From positions 2,179,771-2,243,770 of the forward strand of contig OZ242252.1 of assembly GCA_965206955.1 (NCBI GenBank): a DNA stretch of 64,000 nt, read 5' to 3'. Within the stretch, counting starts at the first letter, position 1. The number at the start of each line of letters is the position of its first letter. The position numbers were made by a program, and so were the translations under genes. This document shows positions 6,107-29,358 of this stretch, in pieces. The notes under the pieces are model-generated. The model saw nothing but the letters and a program-made list of their open reading frames with translations. It had not been told where the DNA came from and did no database searches. This DNA comes from Candidatus Foliamicus sp. GTDB taxonomy: Bacteria > Pseudomonadota > Gammaproteobacteria > Steroidobacterales > Foliamicaceae.

Positions 6107-6240
6107 CCCCTGGGAGCGAGGGCTTCCAGCCCTCGGAGGACAGGATGTCCTTCTTCCCAGGGAACACCCGAAGCGTCAGGGTCTCTCCTGGGAACGAGGG
6201 CTTCCAGCCCTCGGAGGAAAGGATGTCCTCCTTCCCAGGG
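6107..6240. repeat. REP/BIME-like composite, two ~54-bp units
   Basis: The unit CCTGGGA(G/A)CGAGGGCTTCCAGCCCTCGGAGGA.AGGATGTCCT.CTTCCCAGGG occurs twice. Each has nested hairpins GAGGGC-N5-GCCCTC and AGGACA/TGTCCT. Confidence 0.9.
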
Positions 6241-6250: not shown

Positions 6251-6772
6251 TCAGTAATTGAGGGCCAGTGTTCGCGGTTGGCCGAAACCGGGCAGGCTGA
6301 TCAGGTGAAGACGCCCGGGACCGAAGTCGGCGAACTCCAGAGCGCCGGCGTCCCATTCCGCCAGCAGGGCCGACGCCAGACTGGTGGGGGCCACGATGAT
6401 CACGACCCTACCGCGGTATTGTCTCTCCAGCCCTCGCGCGAAGCCGGCGGGCTCCTCGATCAAAACGTCGGCAATGGGCTCCCGGAGCCGTTCGGCCAGC
6501 AAGCGTACGGTTTCGCGCTCGGGTTCTCCTCCGGCGCTCAAGATTCCGCCGAGCAGCTCCGGCTTGGCGAGATCTCCCACCAGCCGGCTCAATGCCTGGG
6601 AACTCGCCTTTCCTTCGGCGCTGAGCGATGCAGAATCACCGTCTTGCCGCTGGGCGGCTGTCAGCAGCAGCACAGTGGTAGTCGCCTCGCTGCCCTGGAG
6701 GCGCCAGAACAAAACCAGAACGCCGACAAGAAAAGCGGCGACCAGCAGATTGCGGTATCGGGCGCGCATCAA
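6251..6772 (-). CDS. hypothetical membrane-anchored protein (possibly a degenerate histidine-phosphatase fold)
   Basis: 173-aa ORF with an N-terminal TM (LLVAAFLVGVLVLFW). It shows weak SixA-like layout but lacks the RH catalytic dyad. Confidence 0.5.
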   Translation of the reverse strand: MMRARYRNLLVAAFLVGVLVLFWRLQGSEATTTVLLLTAAQRQDGDSASLSAEGKASSQALSRLVGDLAKPELLGGILSAGGEPERETVRLLAERLREPIADVLIEEPAGFARGLERQYRGRVVIIVAPTSLASALLAEWDAGALEFADFGPGRLHLISLPGFGQPRTLALNY

Positions 6773-6876
6773 TTTCAGTTGGCAGCCAGCACGGACATGA
6801 GGCCGATGGTACTACTCCGATCCGCGTAAAATAAAGAGGTTGCGGAAGCGTTTCCGGAAAAAAGCGAGGCGACTCT

Positions 6877-7074
6877 TTGTTCGATTGGTATATGTTCATT
6901 ATGGATAACATTGGCGCAGTCGTTGCTGTCGTTCTCGTACTGTTCAATCTCGCCATATGGGTGGCGAGGCGGGTTCGTCAGAAACGTGAGCAGGAACGTT
7001 ACGGGCAATATCCTCCGGCCGTACGATCAGGCCGTTTGAACTATGACGAATACAAAAAGCGACGCGACGGCTGA
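6877..7074 (+). CDS. possible small single-pass membrane protein
   Basis: 65-aa ORF with a hydrophobic core (IGAVVAVVLVLFNLAIWV) followed by a basic tail. No clear RBS. Confidence 0.3.
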   Translation: MFDWYMFIMDNIGAVVAVVLVLFNLAIWVARRVRQKREQERYGQYPPAVRSGRLNYDEYKKRRDG

Positions 7075-7155
7075 TTCGTGCATCAAGTATGGAAAGGCTC
7101 CTCCGTCGTTTGCCGGTGGTATGCTTGAATAACTTGCGTGGATAGACCAATAGAC

Positions 7156-8394
7156 ATGAAAACCATAGTTCGCATATTGGGTGTTTCCTTAGCGCTGTCC
7201 GCGGGGCTGCTTCTCGGAAGTTGCAAGACCGTTGGCGGAAATTCTCCGCCGTCGGGCGGTTCCTCGGTTCCCATGCCTTCGCCCGGCGGCAGTTCCGGAT
7301 CATCCGGTGGCGCGGGCGGTTCGATGGGCTCGTCCGGAGGCTCGATGGGTTCCGCGGGCGGTTCGATGGGCTCGTCCGGAGGCTCGATGGGTTCCGCGGG
7401 CGGTTCGATGGGCTCGTCCGGAGGCTCGATGGGTTCCGCGGGTGGCTCGAAAGGCTCGTCCGGAGGTTCAATGGGTTCCGCGGGTGGTTCGATGGGCTCG
7501 TCCGGAGGCTCGATGGGTTCCGCAGGCGGCTCGATGGGCTCGTCCGGAGGCTCGATGGGTTCCGCGGGCGGCTCGAAAGGCTCGTCCGGAGGCTCGATGG
7601 GTTCCGCGGGTGGCTCGAAAGGCTCGTCCGGAGGCTCGATGGGTTCCGCGGGCGGTTCGATGGGTTCCGCGGGCGGTTCGATGGGTTCCGCGGGCGGTTC
7701 GATGGGCTCGTCCGGAGGCTCGATGGGTTCCGCGGGTGGCTCGAAAGGCTCATCTGGCGGCTCAAGGAGTTCTTCCGGTGGCGCCAGTGGTTCATCTGGA
7801 AGCTCCAGGGGGTCAGCCGGCAGTTCAGCAGGATCGGCCGGTGGCGGCATGGGAACAGGAGGCGGTCCCAGCGGCGGACAAGGCAGTGGCGCAAGCGGCT
7901 CCGGCGGCTCCGGGGATCCCGAAGGCGTTCTGCGTGAATCCATGGAAGGATACGATCGCGAAATCGCTCGTGAGCGCGATGCTATGGCTTCATCCGGGCA
8001 AGGAACACCTGGCGGTAGCGGCGGCATGGGTGGTACGACAGGCGAAGGCGGCGGAGCCGGCGGGCCAATGGTGACTATCCCCAGCATGTCTGGAGGCAGT
8101 TCCGGCGGCGGCCAGGGTGAAGGTGGCGAAGCCGCAGGCGGCAGAGCTAGGGGCGGTGGCAGCGGAGGCGCCGGCGAGAGCGGCCTGGAGGAAGGCGACG
8201 GCAGCAATGCCGGTGACCAACCCGAATCGAAGATTGATATTCCGGAAGATATCGCCGAAGCCACGGGCAGCGAAGACCAGGTAGCGCGGCAGATACGCGA
8301 GGCGGCGGAACAGGAAGAGGATCGACGTATTCGCGACGCGTTGTGGGAAGAATATCGCAGGCACATGGGACTGAAATCAGCGAGGTCGAAGTGA
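7156..8394 (+). CDS. lipoprotein with 21 tandem Gly/Ser heptads and an acidic C-terminal helix
   Basis: MKTIVRILGVSLALSAGLLLGSC lipobox. Positions 7315-7755 hold 21 x 21-bp units encoding GGSMGSS/GGSMGSA/GGSKGSS. C-terminus: EDQVARQIREAAEQEEDRRIRDALWEEY. Confidence 0.8.
   Translation: MKTIVRILGVSLALSAGLLLGSCKTVGGNSPPSGGSSVPMPSPGGSSGSSGGAGGSMGSSGGSMGSAGGSMGSSGGSMGSAGGSMGSSGGSMGSAGGSKGSSGGSMGSAGGSMGSSGGSMGSAGGSMGSSGGSMGSAGGSKGSSGGSMGSAGGSKGSSGGSMGSAGGSMGSAGGSMGSAGGSMGSSGGSMGSAGGSKGSSGGSRSSSGGASGSSGSSRGSAGSSAGSAGGGMGTGGGPSGGQGSGASGSGGSGDPEGVLRESMEGYDREIARERDAMASSGQGTPGGSGGMGGTTGEGGGAGGPMVTIPSMSGGSSGGGQGEGGEAAGGRARGGGSGGAGESGLEEGDGSNAGDQPESKIDIPEDIAEATGSEDQVARQIREAAEQEEDRRIRDALWEEYRRHMGLKSARSK
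7315..7755 (+). repeat. 21-bp (42-bp super-period) coding tandem repeat
   Basis: ggcggttcgatgggctcgtccgga / ggctcgatgggttccgcgggc alternate, with occasional aaa (Lys) variants. I counted 21 heptads in the translation. Confidence 0.9.
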
Positions 8395-9620
8395 ACAGAA
8401 CAACAACCTTCGTCGGCATAGCCGCGTGCGCCGTGCTTCTGGGAGCATGCACGTCGGCGCGCGAGATTCAGTACACCCAGGTGAGACTGAATCGCGCGGA
8501 GACCGAGATTGCCCAGGAAGCTCTGCTCAATGTGGGAATCCTGGTGTTCGATCCTGGTTTGCCGGAGAACTTGAGTGACCAGGAAATGAACGAAAAGCTG
8601 ATTTTCCCGGAAATTCGGCGCGCGGAGGCGCGCTACATGCCGTTTCACCTCAAGAACACGCTGGAGTCCACGGGTTATTGGGGCGCAGTGAGTGTCTTGC
8701 CGGAGTTCAGTCCGGTTGCGGACATCCTTATATCGGCGCGGATCGAAGAATCGGATGGTTACAGTGCCAAGCTGCAGGTTGCCGCCTGGGACGCGTCGGC
8801 GAAGGAGTGGTTCAACAAGAGCTACGAAATGATGGTGGCGGAACAGGCTTATGTGCGCAACACCGACCGCGGCCAGGATCCGTATCAAAACCTCTACAAC
8901 GAGATCGCCAACGATCTGCTGCAGGTCCGCTCCCAACTCAGCGATGCCGAGTTGCAGCGGATACGGGAAATAGGCGATTTGCGCTACGGCCTGAGCGTCG
9001 TGCCGCAGGCGTTCGAAGGCTACCTGGAAAAGACCGACAAAGGGCATTACCAGGTCAAGAGGCTGCCGGCAGAAGATGAACCCATGGTCGGCCGCATGCG
9101 CGAGGTCCGAGAGCGTGAATATGCACTTGTTGATGCGGTGAATGAGCACTACGCGAACCTGTACTACGGTCTGGATGAACCGTACGCGGACTGGCGGCGG
9201 ATGGCGCGCGAAGGCCGCCTGAGCTACGAGGAAATGCGAAGTGCCTCCAACACGCGAATGTTGCTGGGTATTCTCGGAATCCTGGGCGCAATCGCCTACA
9301 ACGACCGTGGCGGCAACAACAGGGCCGTCACCCAGACGATGATCCATGGCGGCATCATGGGCATCCAGGCGGGCCTGGGTCGGCGCGCGGAAGCCAAGAT
9401 GCATGCCGAGGCGCTACGCGAAGTGGGTGAGTCCTTCGACGCCGAGGCCGAGCCCATGGTGGTGGAACTGGAAGGTCAGACCCGGCGGCTGACTGGATCT
9501 GCGGAAGAACGCTTTCGGGAATGGCGCCGTTTGCTGAGGGAGATTTACAGCCGTGAGACCGGCAATCTCGAAATGCCAGGCGCTGCCAACTCCCAGGAAA
9601 CAACTCCGCCGCGACCCTGA
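8391..9620 (+). CDS. lipoprotein of unknown function with a C-terminal glycine-zipper-like hydrophobic segment
   Basis: The GTG at 8391 overlaps the upstream stop (GTGA). Lipobox FVGIAACAVLLGAC. Late segment MLLGILGILGAIAY...GGIMGIQAGLG. Confidence 0.75.
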   Translation: MNRTTTFVGIAACAVLLGACTSAREIQYTQVRLNRAETEIAQEALLNVGILVFDPGLPENLSDQEMNEKLIFPEIRRAEARYMPFHLKNTLESTGYWGAVSVLPEFSPVADILISARIEESDGYSAKLQVAAWDASAKEWFNKSYEMMVAEQAYVRNTDRGQDPYQNLYNEIANDLLQVRSQLSDAELQRIREIGDLRYGLSVVPQAFEGYLEKTDKGHYQVKRLPAEDEPMVGRMREVREREYALVDAVNEHYANLYYGLDEPYADWRRMAREGRLSYEEMRSASNTRMLLGILGILGAIAYNDRGGNNRAVTQTMIHGGIMGIQAGLGRRAEAKMHAEALREVGESFDAEAEPMVVELEGQTRRLTGSAEERFREWRRLLREIYSRETGNLEMPGAANSQETTPPRP

Positions 9621-9762
9621 ACGCGAGCGCATCGGTCCAGGTACTGCCTTGCGATCGCCCGGCAGGCGAATTCGCCCGCCTTCGCCCGTATCATTCGCCC
9701 CACGGTGAGGCGCAGGTGCTGGCGTGCGTAACAATTCAATAAACAAACCACGCGAAGGCGGG

Positions 9763-12051
9763 ATGCTGATATCCCGGTTTCGGCTGATTCGCCTGCTGGG
9801 CTCGGGCGGGCTTGGCGAAGTCTGGCTGGCGGAGGATGTCCGGAACCGGCGCGAAAAGGCATTGAAGCTGCTCAAAGCCAAGTATTGCCGAGAGCCTTCT
9901 CATGTGGAGCTGTTCCGGCGCGAATTCTCCGTAGCCCAGTCTCTTGTTCATCCAGCCATTGTGCGCCCGGAGGAATTCTTTTCCGCCGACTCGGTCCATT
10001 TCTTCGCCATGCCTGTCGTGCCGGGAGGGCATATCGGCGCATCCCGAGGGGCCACATGGAACGAAAGCGTGCGGCGACTCCTGCCGGTATGTGATGCCCT
10101 GGCCTATGCACACCGGAAGGGCGTCGTTCACGGGGACATCAAACCTCAGAACATCCTGTTGGATGAGTCCGAAGCCGCTTGCCTGACTGATTTCGGCGCC
10201 GCCCATATTCCGGAAGGACCCGGCGAAAAGAGGATTCGGCGCCCGGGAGGCACGCTTGCCTATATGAGTCCTCAGCAACTGGAGGGCCAGCCTGCGCAAG
10301 TCAGCGATGATGTGTATGCGCTGGGATGCGTGTGCTACGAGCTGTTCTGCGGGTTTCCGCCGTACGCGCCCGACATAAGCGAGGAAAGAGTCCGCAGTGG
10401 GAAATTTGCGGCTCCGGAGGCGTCGCTTGGGTCTCCGCAGCTTCCCACAGCTCTCTGTGAACTGGTCAAGGCCATGTTGGCTGGCGAAAAGTCGCGCCGG
10501 CCGGTGACCATGCAGGCGGTGCGCTCCACGCTGGAAGAGATTCTTGAAGAGCCCGCCACTGCCGGACAGCCGGAGGGGGCCGGCGCTATTGTTGCGCGGG
10601 CTCGCAATCGTCCCGCGGATGGAGCGCCGGCTGCGATGCTGCAACGGCGCTCGGGCGTGCCCCTGTGGTTGGCGTATGTGTTGGGGGCACTGTTGCTGGC
10701 GGTAGCGGTATCGCTGTTTGTCGCGTTGCCTCGCTTTGCCGAGCAGCGCGCCGCGACACGTCCGCCACCGCAGCAGGTTGCGCAGCAGGCCGAAGCGCCG
10801 CAAGAGGACAAGCAGCTCTTGAGGATTCAGCGCGACGCCGCGGATGAAGCCATGGGAGACATGCTTCAGGACCGCAATTACCTGGCCTCATTGCAGCCGG
10901 CCTTGTGGTCCGGTGGCGCCTGGGAACAGGCCATTGCGCAAGAACAACAGGCAGACGACTTCTACCGCCGCCGCGAATACCCGGACGCCCAACTGGGGTA
11001 CCGCAAGGCGGCCGAAATGCTGCGCCAATTGCGCGAGCAGGCGCCGGAGATCGGGCGCAAATCCCTGGAGCAGGCACAAGAAGCGATCGAATCCGGCGAC
11101 CAGGCTTCCGCATTGGAAGCGCTTGAGAAGGCCGAGATCCTGTTGGGAGCAACCGAGGCTGCCGTGCAATTGGCGCGGCGCCGCGTAAGGAAACTTCCGG
11201 AAGTCATGCCGGCGGTGGAGAAGGCGCGGGCCGCCCGGAGGGACGCAAGCCTTGAGGACCAGCGGCAGGCCTGGCAAGCGGTACTTCAGCTAGACCCCGA
11301 CCGGCAGTCCGCGCGCCGGGCGCTGGCAGCCGTGAATGCGGCCCTCGATCAGCAGTTGTTCGATACGCGGATGTCACGAGGGCATGCGGCGCTGGGCGAT
11401 GGGGATCTCAGTTCCGCACGAAGCGCGTTTGAAGCAGCGAAGAAGCAGCGCCCGGGTGACCCGGCGCCTGCAGAGGCACTGACCGCGCTGGAATTGGAGG
11501 AACGCGGCCAGCGTCTGGCGGAACTGCAAGCCGGGGCGATAGCCGGAAAGTTCCGGGAGGATTGGCGCACGGCGGTCGCTAACTACCAGGGCATGCTGGA
11601 GATTGACGCCAATATCATCGCGGCTCAGAAAGGATTGGCCGAAGCGCAGCGGCGGGTGCGCCTGGATGACGGGCTGGAGAACACCATTGCCAATGCCCAG
11701 ACGCTGAATCGCGAAGATGCCTGGCAACGTGGTAAACGCCTGCTTGATGAAGCCGGCGCCATTGCCAATTCCGGGCGGCGGCTCAGCACGCAAATTTCAA
11801 GTCTTGAGCAGGCTCTGACGGTGGCGGCTACCCCGGCGCCCGTGCAGTTGCGGTCCGATGGTCTTACCCAGGTGACCATTTATCACGTGGGCCGATTGGG
11901 GAGTTTCGATAATCGTGTGATGCAGCTTCGGCCCGGCGCCTATACGGCGATCGGCACCCGCGACGGCTATCGTGACGTGCGTCGCGATTTCGTAGTCGCT
12001 CCGGAGGGGCTTTCCGATCCGCTGGTTCTGGTCTGCACCGAACCGATCTGA
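9763..12051 (+). CDS. Hanks-type Ser/Thr protein kinase with TM, TPR-like periplasmic region and C-terminal PEGA-like domain
   Basis: Motifs LGSGGLGEVWLA...ALKLLK, HRKGVVHGDIKPQNILL, DFGAA and YMSPQQ. TM WLAYVLGALLLAVAVSLFVAL. Start at 9763 (MLISRF) or GTG at 9724. Confidence 0.9.
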   Translation: MLISRFRLIRLLGSGGLGEVWLAEDVRNRREKALKLLKAKYCREPSHVELFRREFSVAQSLVHPAIVRPEEFFSADSVHFFAMPVVPGGHIGASRGATWNESVRRLLPVCDALAYAHRKGVVHGDIKPQNILLDESEAACLTDFGAAHIPEGPGEKRIRRPGGTLAYMSPQQLEGQPAQVSDDVYALGCVCYELFCGFPPYAPDISEERVRSGKFAAPEASLGSPQLPTALCELVKAMLAGEKSRRPVTMQAVRSTLEEILEEPATAGQPEGAGAIVARARNRPADGAPAAMLQRRSGVPLWLAYVLGALLLAVAVSLFVALPRFAEQRAATRPPPQQVAQQAEAPQEDKQLLRIQRDAADEAMGDMLQDRNYLASLQPALWSGGAWEQAIAQEQQADDFYRRREYPDAQLGYRKAAEMLRQLREQAPEIGRKSLEQAQEAIESGDQASALEALEKAEILLGATEAAVQLARRRVRKLPEVMPAVEKARAARRDASLEDQRQAWQAVLQLDPDRQSARRALAAVNAALDQQLFDTRMSRGHAALGDGDLSSARSAFEAAKKQRPGDPAPAEALTALELEERGQRLAELQAGAIAGKFREDWRTAVANYQGMLEIDANIIAAQKGLAEAQRRVRLDDGLENTIANAQTLNREDAWQRGKRLLDEAGAIANSGRRLSTQISSLEQALTVAATPAPVQLRSDGLTQVTIYHVGRLGSFDNRVMQLRPGAYTAIGTRDGYRDVRRDFVVAPEGLSDPLVLVCTEPI

Positions 12052-12071
12052 TGCAGGACGCTTCCGCAAAC

Positions 12072-12420
12072 CTGGGACCGAGGGCATCTTGCCCTCAACG
12101 CCGGGAACGAGGGCATCCTGCCCTCGCCGCTGGGACCGAGGGCATCTTGCCCTCAACGCCGGGAACGAGGGCATCCTGCCCTCGCCGCTGGGACCGAGGG
12201 CATCCTGCCCTCAACGCTGGGACCGAGGGCATCCTGCCCTCGACGCTGGGACCGAGGGCATCCTGCCCTCAACGCTGGGACCGAGGGCATCCTGCCCTCG
12301 ACGCTGGGAACGAGGGCATCCTGCCCTCGCGCATCCTGCCCTCACGCTGGGACCGAGGGCATCCTGCCCTCGACGCTGGGAACGAGGGCATCCTGCCCTC
12401 GCGGATGTCCTCCTTCCCAG
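12072..12420. repeat. tandem array of 11 REP hairpins, 29-bp period
   Basis: GAGGGCATC(C/T)TGCCCTC cores start at 12080, 12109, 12138, 12167, 12196, 12225, 12254, 12283, 12312, 12355 and 12384, plus one half-unit at 12331-12343. There are no unique spacers. Confidence 0.95.
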
Positions 12421-12429
12421 GCTTGAGAA

Positions 12430-14898
12430 ATGACCGCTAAAGTAACGATCACGCTGCCCGATGGGGACCGCATCCTGACGGCGGATGAGCTGCCGATCAC
12501 GCTGCCCGATGGGGACCGCATCCTGACGGCGGATGAGCTGCCGATTCTGTTGGGCAGCGGGCCCGGTTCGCATATCCGCCTTCCCGGTCCGGCAGGCGCC
12601 CCTCCGGCTGCCAGCATCAATCTTCTCGACGAGCGTGCGCTGGTGCAGTGCTCCGCGGGAATCTCCGGCCTGCAACTGAACGGCGAGGCGATCAGCGGCG
12701 CCAAGTTGCTTAGGGAAGGGGACCGGCTTTCCATCGCAGGAGTCGAAGTGGCTCTTGATGGCGTATCCGCCAATTCACTAAGACTCCGGGTGGAATACCT
12801 GGCGAGTGCCTGGGATACCCGGCCTCCGGAAATTGCCGCAGATGAAGAAGGAAGATCCGCGGTTCCCCTGCGCCCGGCCCGATCCAAGGCTACGTCCTCC
12901 CGCCCGTCCAGAGCCCGGCTTTGGCTGCGCCTGGCGGTCGGCCTGATGTTGGCGGTTCTTGGCGCCTGCACGATTTTCGTATTCACCGCCGCCGGCGTAT
13001 TGATTGAAGTCGAGCCGGCGGAAGCTCAAGTGCAGGTCGAGGCGCTCAAACCGATGCCTCACGTCGGACCCCGCTACCTCCTATGGAGCGGCCAGTACCG
13101 GGTGCGCTCCGAACTGGAAAGGTATTACCCGCTGGATGAGCAGATTGAAGTGCGCGCCGTAGGCGGAGAGGAATTTCGTTTCGCCATGCAGCTCTTGCCT
13201 GGCCGCGTGGTGGTGGATACGGTAGCCGGCGCGGAGATTCGCATCGAGGGACAGGAAGGTGTGTTCACCGCCGGTGAGGAAATAGAACTCGAGCCTGGAA
13301 CCTACATAGTGAAGGTGAGTACGCCTCGCTACAAGGAATTAAACGCTGCGCTGGTTGTCAACGGAGGCGGCGAAATCGAGCCGTTCAGCGCGGAATTGGA
13401 ACCGGATTGGGCGGAGATCACGGTGAGCAGCGAGCCGGCCGGGGCGGAATTACGGGCTGAAGGCGAAGTATTGGGCGAAACACCGGCAACCGTGGAATTA
13501 CTCTCCGGAGAACGGGTGCTCTCACTCGCCAAGGCCGGTTTTGCAACGCACAGGGAACAACTTGCCATTGTGGCAGGCGAGCCTCAGATCTTGCCTTCCA
13601 TTCGCCTGCGGCCCGCGTCCGGTGTTCTTAAGGTGCAAACCGACCCGCCGGGCGCGAGCATCACGGTGGACGGAAATTTCCGTGGCGGCTCTCCGGCCAC
13701 TGTGGAAGTAAGCCCTGACCGCGCGCATCGCGTGGTGGTCTCGCGGGCCGGGTATGAATCGCAGGAACGCTCGGTAAGGCTGGGCCGAGGCCAGCAGCAA
13801 TCGCTGAATATCGCTCTCAAGCCGCGCCTGGGCAGGATTCGCGTAATGAGCCGGCCGGCAGGGGCTGAAGTACTGGTAAACGGGAAGGCCGCCGGCAGCA
13901 CGCCAATCGATTTGGACCTGCCATCCACGGAGCACACGCTTGAACTGAGGCTGGAAGGCTACGTGGCCGATTCCCGCCAAGTCATCCCCCAGCCTGCCTA
14001 TCCGCAGGAAATAGCCATAGAACTACTTACCCCGCCGCAGGCCAGACTGGCGGCCCAGCCCACGGAGATCCAGACATCCCTGGGCGCCAGGATGATATTG
14101 CTGCTCCCCGGCGAATTCGAGATGGGATCGCAACGCGGTTCCCAAGGATGGCGTAACAACGAGGTGCGCCGCAAGGTGCGCATCACCAAGCGCTACTATC
14201 TTGGCGTCAAGGAAGTAAGCAACCGGGAGTATAGGGCGATTGTGCCTACGCATACCTCGGGAGCTGAGCGCTTCAAGTCGCTCGCAGCCGACAGCAGTCC
14301 CGCGGTAGATCTGGACTGGCGAGCCGCGGCTGCATTCTGCAATTGGCTGAGTTCGCAAGAGAATCTGCCGCTCCAATACGTAAACCGAAGCGGCCGCCTG
14401 CAGCCGGTTGCCGAGCCGGGGACCGGCTATCGCTTGCCCACCGAAGCCGAATGGGTCTGGGCGGCGCGCTACGCCGGCGGGGTAGGGGATTCACGCTATC
14501 CATGGGGCGAACGCATGCCGCCCTCACCGCTTTCGGGGAATTACGCCGACCAATCCGCCAGCAGTCTGGTGACAATCACCCTAAGTGGCTACAACGATAA
14601 TTTCGCTTTCACCGCCGCGGCCGGCTCGTTCCCCCCCAACGCCAAGGGCTTTTACGATCTGGGCGGCAACGCGTCCGAATGGATGGGCGATTTCTATGGC
14701 ACCGACACGCTGTACCCGAACTTCGAAGTAGACCCGCGCGGTCCCACAGAAGGGCGTTTCCACGTGATCCGTGGCTCCAGCTGGCTTCACGGCGCGCTGC
14801 GCGAACTGCGCTGGGCCTACCGTGACTTTGGCGAAGAAGAGCGAATCGATGTAGGATTTCGTTTGGCGCGCTACGCCGAACTGCAGGAACCGGAATGA
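12430..14898 (+). CDS. FHA-like / TM / multi-PEGA / formylglycine-generating-enzyme (FGE-sulfatase, SUMF1-type) domain protein
   Basis: N-terminal FHA-like fold (LLGSGPGSHIRL...LNGEAI...GDRLSIAG). TM LAVGLMLAVLGACTIFVF. At least 3 PEGA units (SEPAGAELRAEG..., TDPPGASITVDG..., SRPAGAEVLVNG...). C-terminal FGE motifs YRLPTEAEWVWAAR, GNASEWM and RGSSW. Confidence 0.85.
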   Translation: MTAKVTITLPDGDRILTADELPITLPDGDRILTADELPILLGSGPGSHIRLPGPAGAPPAASINLLDERALVQCSAGISGLQLNGEAISGAKLLREGDRLSIAGVEVALDGVSANSLRLRVEYLASAWDTRPPEIAADEEGRSAVPLRPARSKATSSRPSRARLWLRLAVGLMLAVLGACTIFVFTAAGVLIEVEPAEAQVQVEALKPMPHVGPRYLLWSGQYRVRSELERYYPLDEQIEVRAVGGEEFRFAMQLLPGRVVVDTVAGAEIRIEGQEGVFTAGEEIELEPGTYIVKVSTPRYKELNAALVVNGGGEIEPFSAELEPDWAEITVSSEPAGAELRAEGEVLGETPATVELLSGERVLSLAKAGFATHREQLAIVAGEPQILPSIRLRPASGVLKVQTDPPGASITVDGNFRGGSPATVEVSPDRAHRVVVSRAGYESQERSVRLGRGQQQSLNIALKPRLGRIRVMSRPAGAEVLVNGKAAGSTPIDLDLPSTEHTLELRLEGYVADSRQVIPQPAYPQEIAIELLTPPQARLAAQPTEIQTSLGARMILLLPGEFEMGSQRGSQGWRNNEVRRKVRITKRYYLGVKEVSNREYRAIVPTHTSGAERFKSLAADSSPAVDLDWRAAAAFCNWLSSQENLPLQYVNRSGRLQPVAEPGTGYRLPTEAEWVWAARYAGGVGDSRYPWGERMPPSPLSGNYADQSASSLVTITLSGYNDNFAFTAAAGSFPPNAKGFYDLGGNASEWMGDFYGTDTLYPNFEVDPRGPTEGRFHVIRGSSWLHGALRELRWAYRDFGEEERIDVGFRLARYAELQEPE
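12448..12543 (+). repeat. perfect 48-bp in-frame tandem duplication
   Basis: atcacgctgcccgatggggaccgcatcctgacggcggatgagctgccg occurs twice (ITLPDGDRILTADELP x2). Confidence 0.95.
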
Positions 14899-15269
14899 AA
14901 AAGATACCGGGAGTAATCGCGATCATCGCCCTTGCCATCGGGCTGACCTGGGCCGCTGGAAGAGTGGGCGACTGGCTGGGGTTTGCTCAACAGGTGGACC
15001 CTGCCGCGGAAGAGAAGCCCTCCGGGAACCAAGACATCCCCCCTGGGACCGAGGGCATCCTGCCCTCGAATAACGGCTCTCCCGGCGCAGAAACGGACAC
15101 CGAAGGGATCACCCCCGCTCCACCACAAATATCCGCCGAAGTAGCCTCCATCGAAGAAGACCTCGCCCGTATCGAGGAAGCCCTGCAAAGCGACGAAGTC
15201 CTGGAGGAATTCATCCCCTCCGAGCCCCTGTCCGCCGACAACCCCATTCCCTTTCCCACCGACATCTGA
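14895..15269 (+). CDS. small secreted/membrane-anchored acidic protein
   Basis: The ATG overlaps the upstream stop (ATGA). Signal/TM MKKIPGVIAIIALAIGLTWAAG. It contains an in-frame REP hairpin at 15051-15067. Confidence 0.6.
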   Translation: MKKIPGVIAIIALAIGLTWAAGRVGDWLGFAQQVDPAAEEKPSGNQDIPPGTEGILPSNNGSPGAETDTEGITPAPPQISAEVASIEEDLARIEEALQSDEVLEEFIPSEPLSADNPIPFPTDI

Positions 15270-15300
15270 TCGGTCCGCAAAAAAACGGGGCGTTCCGCTT
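15262..15300. repeat. left 39-bp target-site duplication of the IS
   Basis: acatctgatcggtccgcaaaaaaacggggcgttccgctt is identical to 17209-17247. Confidence 0.9.
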
Positions 15301-17208
15301 CCTGACTTCGACGGTTGATGCGGCTGCGGGGTGGGTTTTGGCGGAAAGAGTCGTGTAATTCCGGGGATTTATTGGCGAGGGGTTCGGGATGGGCCAGCGT
15401 AGTGCCTAGTCCTTTTCTTTAGTTGACAAGCGTGCCCCCAGACGTTACCGTGCGTCCATGTTCATCCGCGTCAAAACCACCCCCAACAGCCCCCGGCGTT
15501 CCGTTCAACTCGTCGAGTCCGTGCGCGCCGGCGGAAAGGTCCGGCAACGCATCGTCCGGCACGTCGGCATCGCCATGGATGACGACGAACTGGTTCGGCT
15601 TAAGGAACTGGGGGAATTCATCAAGGCGAAGATCAGCGATGAACGCCAGCCGGGACTGTTCCCGCCCGAACCGATCGCCGAGCAGGCGATCCGGGCGTCA
15701 CGGGCGGCGAATAAGGCGCTGCGGGTGGACTTGAAGCAACTGGAGGAAGAACAGCGCGTGGTCACCGGCATTCACGAAGTGTATGGCGCGACGTATCGCC
15801 AACTGGGTTTTGACAAGCTGTTGCCGAGGTCCCGCTACCGCGCTTCCCACGACAGTCTGCTGCATACCGTCATGGCGCGGATCGCCAACCCCGACAGCAA
15901 GCGCGGCAGCGTGCGGCGGCTGGAGCAGGACTTCGGGGTGGGGCTGCCGCTGGAGAAGCTCTACCGGATGATGGATCACCTCGCCGGGCGGGTGATTGAG
16001 CGGCTCAAAACGCGGGTCGGCAGCGCCACGCAGGCGCTGCTGCCGGAGCCTTTGAACGTGCTGTTCTTCGACTGCACGACCTTGTATTTCGAGTCGTTCA
16101 CCGAGGATGAACTCAAACAGAATGGTTTCAGCAAGGACGCCAAGCACCATCAGGTGCAGGTGCTGCTGGCCCTGATGGTGACGCGGGAAGGTTTGCCGGT
16201 GAGCTATGCGGTGTTCCCGGGCGCCACCTACGAGGGACACAGCTTCATCCCGGTGCTTAAGGACGTGCAGCAGCGTCACCCACTCGGGCAAGCGGTATGG
16301 GTGGCTGACCGGGGGATGTTCAGTGACGATAATCTCAAGGAGTTGGAAGCGCAGGGCTGCGGATACATCGTGGGCGCCCGGATTAAGAACCTTCCCAAGA
16401 CGCTTGCCGAGCAAATTCTCGACACCGGCGCCTACCGGCCGCTGGAAGGCGTTGCGGGTAGGCAGGTTGCGCAATGGCGCCACGGTGACCGGCGGCTGGT
16501 AGTGACCTACAACCCGGCGCGGGCGCGCAAAGATCAGCACGAGCGCCGCAAGGCGGTTGAGAAGCTGATCAAAAAACTGGGCAAAAGCGATAACCCCAAG
16601 GCCCTGCTCGGCCATCGCGGCAACCAGCGCTTTATCACCATTGACGGCGACGCGCGGCTGATGCTCAACGAAGCCAAGGTCAAGGAAGCGGCGCGCTGGG
16701 ACGGGCTGCAGGGGATCATCACCAACCTTGAGGATATGCCGCACCACGAACTGCTGTCGCGCTATCGTGGCCTGTGGCAGGTCGAGGAAAGCTTCCGCAT
16801 CACCAAACATGACCTCAAGGTGCGCCCGATCTACCACTGGACGCCGCACCGGGTGCAGGCACACATCGCCATCGCCTTCATGGCTTTTGCCTGCATACGC
16901 CATCTCGCCTACCGGGTCGCGCTGCAGAAGCGCCGCATGTCTCCGGAAGTCATCCGCAATGCTCTCGTTCACCGCCAGTGTTCGGTGCTCCGGCACCGGC
17001 GCACCGGGAAACGCTATGCGGTGCCGTCAAAACCTTCCCGCGAAACAGAGGACATCTATCGAGCCATGGGGCTGCCACTTCCCACCACGCCCTGCGAACT
17101 CACCTGAACTCACCACTTCTCCCGGCGCTGCTGCTGAATGTAGTGCCTTGGCGCTGATGTGAATTCAGTTAAATCAACACGTTACGAAATCCAACCGTCG
17201 AAGTCAGG
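15301..17208 (+). mobile_element. IS1634-family (IS4 superfamily) insertion sequence
   Basis: 17-bp terminal inverted repeats CCTGACTTCGACGGTTG (15301-15317) and CAACCGTCGAAGTCAGG (17192-17208). Single transposase ORF, flanked by a 39-bp direct repeat. Confidence 0.9.
15458..17107 (+). CDS. IS1634-family DDE transposase
   Basis: The N-terminus MFIRVKTTPNSPRRSVQLVESVRAGGKVRQRIVRHVG is characteristic of this family as I recall it. 549 aa. Confidence 0.85.
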   Translation: MFIRVKTTPNSPRRSVQLVESVRAGGKVRQRIVRHVGIAMDDDELVRLKELGEFIKAKISDERQPGLFPPEPIAEQAIRASRAANKALRVDLKQLEEEQRVVTGIHEVYGATYRQLGFDKLLPRSRYRASHDSLLHTVMARIANPDSKRGSVRRLEQDFGVGLPLEKLYRMMDHLAGRVIERLKTRVGSATQALLPEPLNVLFFDCTTLYFESFTEDELKQNGFSKDAKHHQVQVLLALMVTREGLPVSYAVFPGATYEGHSFIPVLKDVQQRHPLGQAVWVADRGMFSDDNLKELEAQGCGYIVGARIKNLPKTLAEQILDTGAYRPLEGVAGRQVAQWRHGDRRLVVTYNPARARKDQHERRKAVEKLIKKLGKSDNPKALLGHRGNQRFITIDGDARLMLNEAKVKEAARWDGLQGIITNLEDMPHHELLSRYRGLWQVEESFRITKHDLKVRPIYHWTPHRVQAHIAIAFMAFACIRHLAYRVALQKRRMSPEVIRNALVHRQCSVLRHRRTGKRYAVPSKPSRETEDIYRAMGLPLPTTPCELT

Positions 17209-17288: not shown

Positions 17289-20262
17289 CTAGCCCGAGCC
17301 GCCAAGCTCCCAGTGGACCTCCAGGAAAAGAATCTGGCCGCGCCCATTCCAGCGAGTGGGGTCATATGGCAACAGGTGACTACTGGAAACCGTCGCCGGT
17401 GGATCGGCATCCAGGATATTTCGCCCGCCTGCCCGCAACCTGATGCGCTCGATTTCGCCCGCCTGCCCGCAACCTGATGCCGTTTTCAAACACGTAGGTG
17501 GCGGTAACATCCACAGTGGTGCTCGAACCCACATCAATCGCAACGGTGTCACCAAAGTTCTGGCAACGGCCAATTCCAATCAGATCGCCGTAACAAGTAA
17601 CCGCATCCTCGTTGACATAACTGGGCTTGTAATAGACAAACATGTCCAGGCCAAATCGTCCTCGCTGCCAGGTCAAGGAACCTGTAATCCTGTATTCGTC
17701 GCTTCCCTTTTGGGTTCCTACACGATCCACGGGTTCCGTCTCTGGCGTGATGCGGAAGAATTCGTCGAGCACACGGTAGTAATTGATCCGAGGAGTGAAA
17801 TGGCCCCAGGAAGTATCGAAGGAGTACTCCAGGTGAACATCCACGGATTCACTGATCTTCTCCGCGATATTGATGCTCGTGTTGTAGATGGTTACAGCTC
17901 TGCCGGTTGCGTCGCGCTCCACCAACTGCGGGAGCCTGAATGCGATATCGGCGTAGTTGTACAAGAGCGTGCTCCCGTACTCGATCTTGTCCTTGAAATC
18001 GGTGCGTTTCCAGTCAACAATCCAACGCAGACCGGGAATGGAAGTAGAGGACCAATCAAAACCAAGCGACCACTTGTCGCCGTGCTCCGCATTGATATCC
18101 AGATTATTGGACTGGAATTGTGTCGGGATAGGCCCGAAACTCGGGCCGCCGGGCGCGTAGGGGTCCGTGTAATAGGAATTGAACTCGCGGGAATTGCGGG
18201 TATTGAAGGTGTCGCTGAAAACGGGCGCCTTGAATGATCGTGACCAGGCGGCGCGAACAAGCACACTCCGCGTGGGCCGGTAAGCTATGCCAAAGCGTGG
18301 ACTGGTCCGGCTCTGTTTAGTCTTGACAATATTTGGCATGCCGACCTGGCTGGACACAAAACCTGGAACGCTTATCCAGCCTTCGCTCGGTACGAATTGA
18401 CGCCGCGTTCCAAATCCGCCAACAAAGTCAATGCCCCCGTCCGCACCCTCTGCTTCATAGCTGTCGTAGCGCGCCTGTGCCGTTAGCGTCAGCAGGTTGA
18501 TTCCGGGTCTTGCGTTTTGTTCACCCACGATGGGAAATGCGAATTCGGCAAAATAAGCACGTAATTCCTGTGTGGGTTCCGATACTCCAATAAACTCCTC
18601 TTCGCCCTCTTCCTCGATGCCGCCTTCTGCGTACCTTTGATACTTGTCGTATATAACAGTCTCGCGATACTCTGCGCCTACCGCATACTTGATCGCTCCG
18701 CCCCAAATCTCAAAGAGTTCGCCGCGCAGCAGTGGGTCAACCGTAGTCTTCTCGGTAAACCCGAGAGATGGCCCCAGCGCGTTGGTAAAGAGTTCGGCAA
18801 ATCCCTGTGATTGCGCAGTTCCATTTCCGAAGACGTTCAACGCAACATTGGGATCCGGGCTTGCAATGGCCGCATAGAAGGTGTCCTGTGTCGGGTCCCA
18901 TTCACTGCGCCGGTAATCAGGCCTGACCTGGTACGCAATGCTCTCGGAATCCGAAAGGGTTACGTTCAATTGAAATTGATGCACGTCTGCGAATTCCCAA
19001 AGAAAACCCACATTGTGATTCCGCTGTTTCTTTTCCGACTCAGTGTATGACCGCGGAATCAGGCCGGACTCAACCTCGGCGTTCGGCCAATAACCCACAA
19101 CCATGGTCCTGCCGAACGGGTTGAAGGCGTTACTGGCGGGGACCAGGTAGCCCGTCATGCTGGTCTGGAATTGCTGATAGGAATCAAGGTCGGAATACAG
19201 CAGATCGACATAGACGCGAAAATCGTCTGTGAGGTACTGCTCGAATATTACGTTGAGAGCATTTCTGCTCCAATCCGATCCGTTTTGCGGAGGCACGTAG
19301 TCAACAGGCACGACTTGATTGACCAGGAAGTCATCTACCGTAGCGCCGACTCCGCTGTGATCGGCAGGCAGCTGGTAGATGGTGGGATTAAAGAAAGAGC
19401 AACCGGGGAACAGATACGATCCATTGAACTCGCACACAAGCCCGGGTTGGCCATAAAAAGTTCGCCGCAAGTCAAACTCGGGCCCGAAACGGTCACGGTA
19501 GTCGCTTGACGTCCAACCTGCCTTACGAACATCGATCGGCTCACTCCCGGAGTGCGAAATGGAACCCGAAATGCTTCCGCTGGCCCAGGTGTAGCCGGCC
19601 TGCACGCTGCCCTTTTGACGATCCGCGTCTGTAGAACTCCATTCGTTGCGAATCGTTGCGCCGATGCCCGAGTAATTCTTCTTGACAATAAAATTGACGA
19701 CCCCCCCGATGGCGTCTGCTCCATACACGGCCGAAGCGCCGTCCAATTGAATATCCACTCGCTCAATTGCTTCCAAGGGCACCGTCAGGATATTGGCAAA
19801 ATCATCCTGATCACCCGGGTTGCCTGCGACGCGGCGTCCATTGATCAGCACCAGTGTGTTGGCTGAACCGAGTGCTTGCAGGTTGACGGTTGATGTTCCC
19901 AGGCCCAGTGCACCGAGGTTCTTGTCCGTATCTGATGCGCCGCCCCCGAAAAGCATGTCGGTTTGGGTAGTAATGGAGGAAAATGCGAAGGGCAAAGTTC
20001 GGAACAAGTCCTCCAGGCTGGACAAGCCTCGAACGGCAATGTCCTCGGCGGAGAAACTGTAGACTCGCGCCGAAGGATCGCCACCAACCATCCGTGAACC
20101 GGTGACGGTCTGGGTGGCCAGCTCAATCGGCTCTTCCTCGGTGACGGCGGTTGCGTCGTCCGCTTCCACCTCGTCTTGCACATCCTGGGTCAGGCCCAGG
20201 ACCGGTGTGACAAGCGCCGCTGCGAAAACCGCAAACCAGCGACTGCATGATGAATTACGCAT
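17289..20262 (-). pseudogene. TonB-dependent receptor, C-terminus frameshifted by a 34-bp tandem duplication
   Basis: Plug and barrel motifs are present (QTVTGSR, LEAIERVDIQLDGASAVYGADAIGGVVNFI). ORF 17380-20262 ends in the aberrant RAHQVAGRRAKYPGCRSTGDGFQ. The expected barrel end GGRNILDADPP...GRGQILFLEVHWEL continues in another frame to 17289. Confidence 0.75.
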
Positions 20263-24172: not shown

Positions 24173-24245
24173 GGCCGGCTTGCTCCTGGGATAGAGAGCG
24201 TGCCTGGCCTTGGTGGGCAGGATGCGAACGCTCCCATGGCACAAC

Positions 24246-24417
24246 CCTGGGAACGAGGGCTTCCAGCCCTCGACGAGGGCAAGATGCCCTCGCTCCCAAA
24301 GTGTTCCCTGCGCGTCAGCGCAGCGGGGGCCGCTGCGAGAACTCCCAGGAAGGGCTTGCTCGGCGGTGGAGGGCAGGATGCCCTCTTTCCCAGCGAGGGC
24401 GTACTCCTCCTTCCCAG
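24246..24417. repeat. REP composite (MITE-like, ~170 bp) in the ppk/sixA divergent intergenic region
   Basis: CTGGGAACGAGGGCTTCCAGCCCTCGACGAGGGCAAGATGCCCTCGCTCCCA, then GTTCCCTGCGCGTCAGCGC...CTCCCAGG, then GAGGGCAGGATGCCCTC. Confidence 0.85.
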
Positions 24418-24523
24418 CGTGGGGCTGCCGCGTGGAATGGAATCCATGATCGGAGTAGCATACAGGACTGATGAGGTTTTTGACTCCATTCAAGAGTGAC
24501 TCCAGGCCGCCGCGAGCCAAGGC

Positions 24524-25057
24524 ATGACGCGCTTATGGTTGCTGCGACACGCCAAGGCCGGGCCGTATTCCGCGGACGACTTCGGAAGGGCTCTGGCGCC
24601 GAGGGGGCGCCGCAACGCGCCGGCGATGGGCGAGAAGCTGGCGGCTGTGGGATGCGCACCGGAACGCGTGCTTTGTTCGGCTGGCCGGCGAGCGGTGGAG
24701 ACAATGCGCGGGGTGCTGCCCTGGTTGCCGGCCGACCTCAGCGTGGAGATCATGCACCGGCTGTACACCTTCAGTCCGGGCACGGTCTTGCATTGCTTGC
24801 GCGAGTTACCGGAGAACGCCGGCGACATCATGGTTGTAGGGCACAACCCGGCGCTGCAGGAGTTGGCCCTGTACCTGGCCGGAGCGGGCGAAGAGGATGC
24901 CTTTGCGATGCTGCACGGCAAGTTTCCTACCTGCGCGGTGGCCGAACTCGAATTTCCCGAGTCGCCTCATCCAACCGATTGGGCCGAGAGCAGCGCATAC
25001 CTGCGCCGCGTTCTCACGCCAAGGCCACCTGGATGGAAGAGGCGAACCTATCCTTGA
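24524..25057 (+). CDS. sixA: SixA-type phosphohistidine phosphatase
   Basis: MTRLWLLRHAKA... RH catalytic motif and VVGHNPAL. 177 aa. Confidence 0.8.
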   Translation: MTRLWLLRHAKAGPYSADDFGRALAPRGRRNAPAMGEKLAAVGCAPERVLCSAGRRAVETMRGVLPWLPADLSVEIMHRLYTFSPGTVLHCLRELPENAGDIMVVGHNPALQELALYLAGAGEEDAFAMLHGKFPTCAVAELEFPESPHPTDWAESSAYLRRVLTPRPPGWKRRTYP

Positions 25058-25090
25058 TTATTCGTACCTTAAGGTGCGACAATCTCGCAT

Positions 25091-25297
25091 ATGGACGGAA
25101 CGGAATTCGTCAGGCGCGCCAGGAGATACGCCAAGAGTGTTGACACGTTTTTTCTCTTTGATCCTCGGCGAGGTAAGGGTAGTCATGGGATTCTGTATCT
25201 CGGTGAGCGGCGCACAGTGGTCAAACGTGGAGAGATTAAACCGGGAGCATTTCGTAGCATGCTTAAGCAGTTGGGCATTCCAAAGGAGAAGTTCTGA
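25091..25297 (+). CDS. hicA: HicA-family toxin
   Basis: 68 aa with RRGKGSHGILY and a C-terminal LKQLGI. Stop and start overlap with the downstream antitoxin. Confidence 0.8.
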   Translation: MDGTEFVRRARRYAKSVDTFFLFDPRRGKGSHGILYLGERRTVVKRGEIKPGAFRSMLKQLGIPKEKF

Positions 25298-25725: not shown

Positions 25726-25823
25726 CCCAATCGTTACGAGCATGTTCAGGATACTTTTTCCCCGGAGATCTTTCTCGCGCGGCTGTTTCTTCCCGTGCAC
25801 GCTTGGCTTTGTTGAAACAGCCT

Positions 25824-26742: not shown

Positions 26743-26758
26743 GCCGCAGGCAACTCGC

Positions 26759-29266: not shown

Positions 29267-29358
29267 TCTGGGCACGAGGGCATCCTGCCCTCGCGGAGGA
29301 CAGGATGTCCTCCCTCCCAGCCACGGCATCCCCCTGGGAACGAGGGCATCCTGCCCTC
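29267..29358. repeat. REP composite
   Basis: CTGGGCACGAGGGCATCCTGCCCTCGCGGAGGACAGGATGTCCTCCCTCCCAG ... CTGGGAACGAGGGCATCCTGCCCTCG. Confidence 0.9.

Follow-up and report, generated by a model that had tools for sequence, protein, structure and literature searches.

The DNA considered here (hereafter 'the window') is a stretch of 64,000 nucleotides from Candidatus Foliamicus sp. (assembly GCA_965206955.1, contig OZ242252.1, forward-strand positions 2,179,771 to 2,243,770). It is GC-rich chromosomal DNA (about 60% GC), and the closest homologues of its genes come from Candidatus Foliamicus metagenome-assembled genomes (MAGs). Our subject is a group of five open reading frames on the + strand, ORF1 to ORF5 (7156-8394, 8391-9620, 9724-12051, 12430-14898 and 14895-15269), and its relation to an operon for a MotA-like protein, a protein with a forkhead-associated (FHA) domain and a vWA (von Willebrand factor A) protein, which lies 11 kb downstream (25945-29264). 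An earlier note, made from the sequence of the window, had described ORF1-ORF5 as co-directional genes joined by start/stop overlaps or by an array of repetitive extragenic palindromic (REP) elements, and had taken them for an envelope Ser/Thr-kinase module. The presence of the five ORFs is confirmed, and ORF listing together with direct reading of the letters recovered every one of these features: the GTG start codon of ORF2 overlaps the stop codon of ORF1 (GTGA, 8391-8394), ORF4 and ORF5 share an ATGA overlap (14895-14898), and the REP array stands between ORF3 and ORF4. Homologues were found for ORF1-ORF5, and hence none of the five is a chance ORF.

Comparison with other genomes suggests to consider the two groups of genes jointly. 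Eighty loci were fetched from species-representative genomes by way of an alignment of ORF4 homologues; 45 of the first 46 are orthologous, while the remaining one (L045) matches only the domain of ORF4 related to formylglycine-generating enzyme (FGE). The window proteins were compared with the loci by tblastn, and the ORFs of the loci were also clustered independently. Outside the Foliamicus lineage the MotA-like gene follows the PEGA-FGE gene, that is, ORF4, at a distance of less than 1 kb in 38 of 42 informative loci, and the same contiguous order is repeated in five metagenomic loci (L081, L082, L083, L085 and L086). The suspicion of the earlier note that the two loci are wired together is thus borne out by their position in relatives, where they adjoin. 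The hosts are diverse Gammaproteobacteria along with a few members of other phyla, and comprise Woeseiaceae, Steroidobacteraceae, Pseudomonadales, Porticoccaceae, Luminiphilus, SAR92, OM182, Methylophaga, Arenicella, Nitrosomonadaceae, Desulfobacteraceae and others. The consensus order starts with a TPR protein (c6), an ORF1-like lipoprotein, an ORF2-like lipoprotein, ORF3, ORF4 and a small ORF, and continues with the MotA-like gene, a gene for a protein of ∼440 residues ending in an FHA or FHA-like domain (absent in some clades), two vWA genes, two small lipoproteins and an M48 peptidase. The two lipoproteins and the M48 protease close the cluster in many genomes, and the number of vWA genes is usually two, with a single one in the window and in L002.

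Close relatives reveal how the two halves came to be separated. L002, with an ORF4 73% identical to that of the window, has only ppx-ppk between ORF5 and the MotA gene; in L001 (89% identical) and in the window ppx-ppk is accompanied by a gene for a TonB-dependent receptor; and an IS4-family element is present in the window alone. Since all outgroups, L003 among them, have the two halves side by side, the split represents a lineage-specific rearrangement. We regard it as practically certain that ORF1-ORF5 and the MotA/FHA/vWA operon constitute one cluster which was split in the Foliamicus lineage. As to the genes at the cluster end, one of the metagenomic loci (L081, 11270-11986) encodes, after the second vWA gene, an OmpA-domain protein with a Gly-zipper that resembles Pal, the peptidoglycan-binding lipoprotein of Tol-Pal; at that position other loci have the unannotated lipoproteins c7 and c8 and the M48/BepA-like peptidase c9. 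A TonB-C domain suspected from the C-terminal sequence of the TPR protein c6 received no support from Pfam and was dropped.

The downstream operon provides the components of a motor. Its first gene (25945-26742, + strand), which lies directly 3' of ORF5 in other genomes, encodes a MotA/TolQ/ExbB-like proton-channel subunit of 265 residues (PF01618, 53.9 bits versus a cut-off of 22.9, E = 1.9e-14; NCBIfam TolQ, E = 2.8e-6). Its family profile matches E. coli TolQ weakly (E = 0.012) and places the invariant residues T189 and T222 on the channel threonines of TolQ. The last gene (28167-29264, + strand) codes for a transpore helix-vWA protein (TolR/ExbD-like; 365 residues), with the transmembrane (TM) helix SFLDIISCGFGAVVLFFVII (nt 28200-28259), a coiled coil, and a periplasmic vWA domain carrying the metal-ion-dependent adhesion site (MIDAS) motif DSSAS (D-x-S-x-S; nt 28680-28694). 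Four residues, D15 of the N-terminal helix and D172, S174 and S176 of the MIDAS, are invariant in 24 orthologues. The match to Pfam VWA_3 is borderline (26.9 versus 27), and no match to ExbD, TolR or MotB was obtained among the cluster proteins in Pfam or NCBIfam. Searches of the PDB with the single sequences of the MotA-like and vWA proteins returned nothing useful, and the vWA family profile returned coiled-coil matches.

A 2025 survey described a second vWA family that is tightly linked to tolQ homologues lacking tolR, and proposed that the vWA protein inserts a TolR-like 'transpore helix' (TPH) into the pentamer; the function of this class, found mainly in Proteobacteria, is unknown, and its TPH-vWA genes occur predominantly as heterologous pairs (PMC12204202). 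As judged from their sequences, the channel and vWA genes of the window match this class: a tolQ/motA homologue without tolR or exbD is linked to an inner membrane-tethered vWA protein having the Asp in its N-terminal helix. The window differs in that a single vWA gene takes the place of the usual heterologous pair, a pairing which PMC12204202 gives as predominant and which is hence not obligatory. Moreover, that description makes no mention of upstream PEGA/FGE, TPR and lipoprotein genes, of a small protein whose C-terminal peptide is conserved, of an Hsp70-like-FHA protein, or of a kinase. We consider it likely that the TolQ-like pentamer forms a motor with the vWA protein or proteins.

ORF3 (9724-12051, + strand) encodes a single-pass Hanks-type Ser/Thr kinase, which may in fact start at the ATG at 9764. 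The kinase domain (nt 9781-10527, residues 20-268; Pkinase, PF00069, 132.2 bits versus a cut-off of 31.7, E = 2.9e-38) is followed by the only hydrophobic helix of the protein (residues 316-334, nt 10669-10725). The motifs GSGGLGEVW, ALK, HGDIKPQN, DFG and SPQQ are present, and the catalytic ones are conserved among orthologues; Gly replaces the Arg of HRD in the Foliamicus lineage (HGD, i.e., a non-RD kinase), whereas most orthologues have HRD. The kinase retains all catalytic motifs (Gly-rich loop, β3 Lys, Asp/Lys/Asn of the catalytic loop and DFG). For the ectodomain, which the earlier note had described as TPR-like plus PEGA, the first label stands, with a weak TPR match in the window protein (E = 0.035) and clear ones in orthologues. 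The second is weakly supported: the C-terminal β-domain (∼nt 11779-12048) aligns with an ORF4 PEGA repeat at an hhalign probability of 61% (E = 8e-5), so that we call it PEGA-like with reserve.

ORF4 (12430-14898, + strand) is likewise a single-pass protein, of 822 residues, and the topology previously put forward for both large proteins is thus supported by one hydrophobic helix apiece. It consists of (i) a cytoplasmic, degenerate FHA-fold domain (∼nt 12478-12804), (ii) the TM helix (residues 174-192, nt 12949-13005), (iii) four periplasmic PEGA repeats (∼nt 13013-14049), and (iv) an FGE-like domain of C-type-lectin fold (nt 14086-14871). Pfam searches recovered the domains that had been proposed from reading the two proteins, namely Pkinase in ORF3, and in ORF4 PEGA (PF08308) in four stretches (151.9 bits, E = 4.5e-45) and FGE-sulfatase (PF03781) at residues 553-814 (132.5 bits versus 23.3, E = 2.7e-38).

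The latter match, and E values of about 1e-17 for human and bacterial FGE as the best relatives of solved structure, raise the question whether ORF4 acts as a true formylglycine-generating enzyme and matures sulfatases, a plausible task in a sponge symbiont. Matches of the domain in the PDB include human FGE (1.6e-17) and PorK (6e-12) as well as PvdO and a Treponema variable protein of a diversity-generating retroelement. The catalytic cysteines of human FGE are Cys336 and Cys341. In the alignment, C336 of human FGE falls on a gap, no Cys is found within the last 120 residues of ORF4, and the family consensus, RGxSW......ELRLxYRD, contains none. Hence, the catalytic, copper-binding Cys pair is missing across the family, and the domain is non-catalytic rather than that of a sulfatase-maturing enzyme as its FGE/SUMF1-type label had implied. 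The protein is, moreover, membrane-anchored with the domain placed behind four PEGA repeats, and no sulfatase gene turned up among the cluster genes scanned. We therefore discard an enzymatic role, its likelihood being close to nil. An independent indication of function comes from distant ORF4 homologues (P0085-P0094) in which Pkinase is joined directly to PEGA and FGE, suggesting that the ectodomain serves as a kinase sensor.

The N-terminal domain of ORF4 falls short of the Pfam FHA threshold (12.7 bits versus 20.7, E = 0.18), and eight of 24 family members match Pfam FHA at E < 1. When the family profile was compared with the PDB, however, all top matches were FHA domains (E = 5e-5 to 4e-3), including afadin (5e-5), M. 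tuberculosis FhaA (1.6e-4), Rv1747, Ki-67, EmbR and GarA. Likewise, the AlphaFold2 (AF2) model, having a mean predicted local distance difference test score (pLDDT) of 85.6, retrieved FHA domains throughout the 50 top Foldseek matches in the PDB. The domain, which had been called FHA-like from its sequence, is thus predicted by profile and model to adopt the FHA fold. In the alignment with FhaA, GR is replaced by GS, S-R-x-H by A-P-P-A and the loop Asn by Ser, and the phosphothreonine (pThr)-binding columns are not conserved across the N-terminal family. The domain is followed by a DTRPP motif (nt 12814-12828), an instance of a D-T-x-P-P pattern whose two prolines do not vary among 24 sequences; DTxPP is a candidate phospho-acceptor site. 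The 5' end of the gene carries a perfect tandem duplication of 48 nt (100% matches; 12446-12545, + strand), which adds 16 residues (ITLPDGDRILTADELP) in the first β-strand region of the FHA-like domain. It is confined to the protein of this genome (822 residues), the eight other members of the 90%-identity cluster having 806, and represents a recent event in this strain or, alternatively, an artefact of the assembly.

The distribution of the kinase among the loci is informative with respect to its role. In most genomes the cluster core lacks the kinase: ORF3 is then a protein of ∼500 residues having only a short cytoplasmic tail, and ORF4 is mostly a short form (∼690 residues instead of ∼800) devoid of the first ∼110 residues. 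A kinase fused to ORF3 is found in the window, L001, L002, L003, L005, L026, L028, L029, L034 and L035, and also in L086 and the P0056 locus, while two metagenomic loci have it as a separate soluble gene just upstream of the TPR gene and after the ORF2-like gene (L081, 2014-2673, 219 residues; L083, 5487-6251, 254 residues). L031 has a fused degenerate pseudokinase (HGF for HRD) and a short ORF4. The long ORF4 is present in 14 of 14 kinase-bearing loci, and its N-terminal domain also occurs without kinase in five (L007, L011, L082, L084 and L085). Far from being the heart of the module, as had been supposed, the kinase thus appears from these gene contents to be, along with the ORF4 N-terminal domain, a clade-specific add-on.

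These data also bear on the possibility that kinase and ORF4 FHA-like domain form a self-contained pair, i.e., an autonomous envelope sensor-kinase module for which the motor genes are mere neighbours elsewhere. The strict association of the kinase with the long ORF4 and the FHA fold of its N-terminal domain are what one would expect of such a pair, and the earlier note had proposed the domain as a plausible phospho-reader of the kinase. Yet the pThr-binding Arg, Ser, His and Asn are replaced and the domain is kept in five loci without kinase, which makes it a poor candidate for that task, and we infer a docking or scaffold function instead. Furthermore, most orthologous clusters possess neither the kinase nor the N-terminal domain and still show the gene order with the motor genes, and the canonical FHA residues whose occurrence does follow that of the kinase belong to the protein of the MotA operon described below. 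A self-contained kinase pair is thus improbable.

The FHA protein in question is encoded by the middle gene of the downstream operon (26735-28177, + strand). It comprises 480 residues, is predicted to be cytoplasmic (no TM segment) and, as the earlier note had stated, contains the only other FHA domain in the window; it is the only one at Pfam level among the window ORFs scanned (38.8 bits versus 20.7, E = 1.3e-9). At positions 85-293 the family profile matches Hsp70 nucleotide-binding domains (SSB1, 3.7e-5; DnaK, 4e-4), and its C-terminal part matches FHA domains (9e-7). In the C-terminal FHA domain of the window protein (nt 27929-28129) the Arg of the GR motif is replaced by Ser (IGSS), but the pThr-binding Ser and His are kept, with SRNH at 27992-28003 and HSRYGT at 28046-28063. 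When the C-terminal 105 residues of all orthologues were aligned, canonical motifs (S-x-x-H and HSRxGT; in the alignment, G-[VI]-S-R-x-H-C and D-H-S-R-x-G-T) were found in eight of nine kinase loci as compared to one of 23 loci without kinase (Fisher p = 7e-6, uncorrected for phylogeny); the ninth kinase locus, L081, has S-T-E-H in place of the counted motif. The pattern in L007 (no kinase, degenerate FHA residues) and in L011 and L082 (neither kinase nor FHA protein) also fits a link between the two and is suggestive. We therefore propose, on the basis of the retained residues, the 480-residue protein as a better candidate pThr reader than the ORF4 domain, and it is probable, if less so than the assignment of the motor, that the kinase is wired to this FHA domain.

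The remaining proteins of the upstream half are presumably exported, as had been noted before: lipobox patterns following hydrophobic segments identify ORF1 and ORF2 as lipoproteins, and ORF5 has a signal peptide. ORF1 (7156-8394, + strand, 412 residues; lipobox LLLGSC, residues 18-23) contains GGSMGS[AS] heptad repeats, encoded by a 42/63-nt tandem array (7311-7782), and ends in a conserved helix ...QVARQIREAAEQEEDRRIRDALWEEYRRH (nt 8278-8364). In at least 20 orthologous loci the gene that occupies this position shows conservation of the C-terminal ∼50 residues, and the repeat region differs among L001, L002 and L003; what the counterparts have in common is a lipoprotein signal, a Ser/Gly region of low complexity and variable length and the C-terminal helix, and nothing else. 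ORF2 (8391-9620, + strand, 409 residues; lipobox LLGAC, residues 16-20) comprises an N-terminal α/β domain followed by a helical, Gly-rich C-terminal region. It is found in 37 of the 46 loci of the comparison set, and its family yielded 796 matches in a word-indexed search and 1,561 representatives at 50% identity (E ≤ 1e-3). No Pfam or NCBIfam family was matched by either lipoprotein. Foldseek comparison of the AF2 model of ORF2 (pLDDT 68.8 overall, 80-94 in the N-terminal domain) indicates weak similarity to the N-terminal domain of TolB (1.7e-3) and to LptE (8e-3) at low TM-scores and high root mean square deviations, a likeness which we take as a lead and not as a result. ORF5 (14895-15269, + strand, 124 residues) consists of the signal peptide, an acidic/Pro-rich linker and, at its extreme C-terminus, the peptide FIPSEPLSADNPIPFPTDI (nt 15210-15266). 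Its variable linker contains an in-frame REP copy (15051-15067). The C-terminal motif, F-x-P-S/T-E-x-h-x-x-D/E-x4-F-P-x-D-I-stop, is nonetheless shared by the window and 28 related loci, so that ORF5 is a conserved member of the cluster. Small ORFs of this type in other genomes combine a signal peptide with a low-complexity linker and lie between the FGE and MotA genes wherever the position is visible.

Taken together, we favour, with a probability of roughly 0.6, the view that ORF1-ORF5 are the upstream half of a conserved envelope-spanning TolQ-like/vWA system which is supplemented in one clade by control through kinase and FHA domains. In such a system the TolQ-like pentamer would form, with the vWA protein or proteins, a 5:2 proton-driven motor, the vWA/MIDAS head of which extends into the periplasm, while ORF3 and ORF4 would provide a periplasm-spanning scaffold or sensor made of TPRs, PEGA sandwiches and the lectin-like, non-catalytic FGE domain, acting together with the lipoproteins and the ORF5 peptide. 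The control layer would consist of the Hanks kinase, located at the cytoplasmic end of ORF3 or encoded separately, the FHA-fold docking domain at the cytoplasmic end of ORF4, and the Hsp70-like protein with its pThr-competent FHA domain. One may then envisage that the periplasmic sensor parts drive the kinase, that the latter phosphorylates a cytoplasmic Thr, possibly in its own juxtamembrane region or in DTxPP of ORF4, and that binding of the FHA domain of the Hsp70-like ATPase to the pThr site switches motor assembly or activity. The output, which is the least certain step, could be maintenance or surveillance of the envelope as in Tol-Pal or in threonine phosphorylation control of type VI secretion systems (T6SS), a role that we advance only tentatively.

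Several points weigh against this view. The two halves are 11 kb apart in this genome, making co-transcription impossible. Searches of the 64-kb window by tblastn located neither a second vWA paralogue nor any of the c6-c9 genes, and within 64 kb neither the window nor L002 contains a second vWA paralogue, the c7/c8 lipoproteins or the M48 protease; the system is thus either reduced here or completed from elsewhere in the genome. In two kinase-bearing loci of Steroidobacteraceae MAGs (L028 and L029) the FHA and vWA genes come directly 3' of ORF4/ORF5, and the place where a MotA gene would be expected holds none. With respect to the control layer, the kinase loci essentially constitute one clade or grade in a rough neighbour-joining tree, and the Fisher p value therefore overstates the covariation of kinase and FHA residues, which reflects few independent events. 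L004 has a near-canonical FHA domain and no kinase, and L012 has only part of the FHA motifs, with ORF3 cut by the contig edge and the kinase status hence unreadable. No phosphatase was found with the kinase: in agreement with the earlier note, none of the PP2C type is found among the 38 window ORFs that were scanned against Pfam. Finally, the 5:2 motor is a published prediction, all components are known from genes alone, and the phospho-acceptor and the physiological role rest on inference.

Among systems of known function, the closest analogue of the proposed control is the TagQ-TagR-PpkA-Fha1 pathway of P. aeruginosa, in which the lipoprotein TagQ, TagR (COG1262), PpkA and Fha1 sense envelope damage (PMC13584744, PMC7817224). 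The threonine phosphorylation pathway of the H1-T6SS (TagQRST-PpkA-Fha1-PppA) shares with the present cluster the vocabulary of an outer-membrane lipoprotein (TagQ), a periplasmic COG1262 protein (TagR), a single-pass Hanks kinase and an FHA reader, and likewise couples perturbation of the envelope to assembly of a machine. COG1262, the label given to TagR in a review table, denotes FGE-like proteins, and the periplasmic part of PpkA contains a vWA domain. In contrast, the FGE-like domain here is anchored to the membrane behind PEGA repeats, the vWA domain is found on a TolR-like motor subunit and not on the kinase, and the output would be a TolQ-like motor. T6SS genes, a TagST ABC transporter and PppA did not turn up in the Pfam scan of the 38 window ORFs, and a literature search on TagR, PpkA and formylglycine yielded nothing.

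The architecture of ORF4 also recalls GltG of Myxococcus xanthus, in which an FHA domain, a TM helix and a periplasmic extension follow one another and which has been modelled bound to a pentamer of the TolQ-like AglR (PMC11761067). In either protein a single TM helix links a cytoplasmic FHA domain to an extended periplasmic part, and in both cases the machine includes TPR proteins, lipoproteins and a vWA protein. This suggests an alternative in which the cluster encodes a surface motility or adhesion machine of the Agl-Glt type, with the TolQ-like motor driving a GltG-like ORF4 and a vWA adhesin in order to move or anchor the cell; the vWA adhesin CglB is part of the M. xanthus machine, and gliding has indeed been raised as a possible role of vWA transducers (PMC12204202). 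The likeness is, however, architectural: GltG ends in a TonB-C-like domain and ORF4 in PEGA and FGE-like domains, Agl contains the TolR-like AglQ/S, the present cluster is devoid of outer-membrane β-barrel partners, and its vWA domain has an inner-membrane tether instead of being surface-exposed. The hosts, moreover, include planktonic marine clades (SAR92, OM182, Luminiphilus and Porticoccaceae) and sponge symbionts, which are not known as gliders. Such a machine appears even less probable than the self-contained kinase pair.

Two further comparisons concern individual domains of ORF4. The FGE domain has GldK as best NCBIfam match (E = 9e-28, far below the GldK cut-off), and the PorK/GldK and PorLM/GldLM components of type IX secretion (T9SS) and gliding likewise combine a non-catalytic FGE-fold protein with a proton-driven motor of 5:2 type across the periplasm. 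PorK, however, is a lipoprotein of the outer membrane while ORF4 has its anchor in the inner one, homologues of PorL/M/N are lacking here, and the hosts are Gammaproteobacteria. The second comparison is with SctD/YscD of type III and EssC of type VII secretion systems, where a cytoplasmic FHA fold without canonical pThr residues is followed by a TM segment and extracytoplasmic repeats. The FHA domain of EssC is the second Foldseek hit for the ORF4 N-terminus, and Pfam Yop-YscD_cpl matches three of 24 family members weakly. Secretion-system genes are absent here, and the likeness holds at the level of architecture.

A MotA-like motor next to a kinase and an FGE-like domain could also be viewed as an anti-phage or conflict system resembling Zorya, in which an FGS/FGE domain senses the invader and a defence kinase responds to breach of the envelope by a phage. 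Support for this notion comes from matches of the kinase domain to the PADLOC models of the PD-T4-6 and Mad6 kinases, from the use of FGS domains as ligand sensors in conflict systems (PMC7159879), and from ZorAB being a 5:2 motor in defence (PMC12204202). The PADLOC matches nevertheless concern the generic kinase domain alone, with none for the MotA, vWA, FHA, FGE and lipoprotein genes, and we set aside assignment to a known defence system for this reason. The cluster contains no nuclease, NTPase or other effector, its gene order is maintained from family to family, and housekeeping genes flank it. We thus deem a role in defence very unlikely.

Returning to the envelope-spanning TolQ-like/vWA system that we favour, it stays within the range of TolQ/MotA-type trans-envelope machines regulated by a Hanks kinase and an FHA protein. 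Its motor half had been put forward on bioinformatic grounds in 2025; the complete cluster, the ORF2 and ORF5 families and the kinase/FHA layer appear to be undescribed, and literature searches joining PEGA or FGE with TolQ, ExbB or vWA produced no description of the combined system. It is tempting to speculate, although this is a doubtful extension, that the cluster represents an unrecognised class of proton-powered trans-envelope machine functionally unlike Tol-Pal, Ton, flagellar, gliding, T9SS and Zorya systems, in which the TolQ-like pentamer would turn or pull a vWA/MIDAS head that engages the acidic C-terminal peptide of ORF5 and the lectin-like FGE/PEGA scaffold, and which would in one clade be gated by Thr phosphorylation read by the Hsp70-like ATPase-FHA protein.

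Motors of the MotA/TolQ/ExbB-type 5:2 architecture power most known energy-dependent processes at the outer membrane of Gram-negative bacteria, and here an uncharacterised cluster of 8 to 12 genes is distributed across many marine, soil and symbiotic Gammaproteobacteria. For the TolQ-like/vWA motors proposed in 2025 it provides a parts list made up of periplasmic lectin-like, PEGA and TPR proteins as well as lipoproteins, a conserved peptide and an Hsp70-like-FHA protein. The kinase-bearing and kinase-less versions represent a natural on/off comparison, with the pThr residues of one FHA domain retained in the former. The cluster thereby offers a testable way into two questions, that is, kinase-linked sensing by FGE-like domains and the control of envelope machines by Hanks kinases beyond T6SS.

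Other features of the window are of minor importance for the argument. The REP array that fills the gap between the kinase gene and ORF4 (12072-12403, without strand) comprises 11 copies of a 29-nt unit with the hairpin GAGGGCA-TCC-TGCCCTC; as ORF3 and ORF4 overlap or abut in L003, L005 and L081-L086, it is a lineage-specific insertion. The REP family, with the hairpin GAGGGCATCCTGCCCTC and its variant GAGGGCTTCCAGCCCTC, has 48 copies in the window (0 expected by chance), which are mainly intergenic and frequently arranged as inverted pairs or arrays; examples are found at 1704-1740, 6118-6212, 24255-24385, 29276-29358 and 49621-49957, besides 12072-12403. A scan of 6700-15500 for promoters and terminators stayed at chance level. 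Directly 3' of ORF5 lies a gene for an IS4-family (DDE_Tnp_1) transposase (15458-17107, + strand), which belongs to the DNA between the cluster halves and has no functional part in the system; at the matching position in the closest relative, L001, no counterpart was called.

Just 5' of the MotA gene are two ORFs lacking a Pfam family, 24496-25143 (+) and 25183-25800 (-). L001 retains both (84-86%), and L002 retains the former (52%), which there stands immediately ahead of MotA. Three genes for TonB-dependent receptors occur within 25 kb on the - strand (17380-20262, 32237-35365 and 39379-42426), one of them within the DNA that splits the cluster. An FG-GAP/ASPIC/cadherin-domain protein (37137-39179) and a PIN_3-domain protein (44454-45290) are apparently unrelated to the cluster. 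The longest ORFs of ppk (21896-24520, -) and of an acyl-CoA dehydrogenase gene (30648-32099, +) have more than 100 codons ahead of the first Pfam domain, and since these long 5' extensions run across REP copies, the true starts of both genes are probably further downstream.

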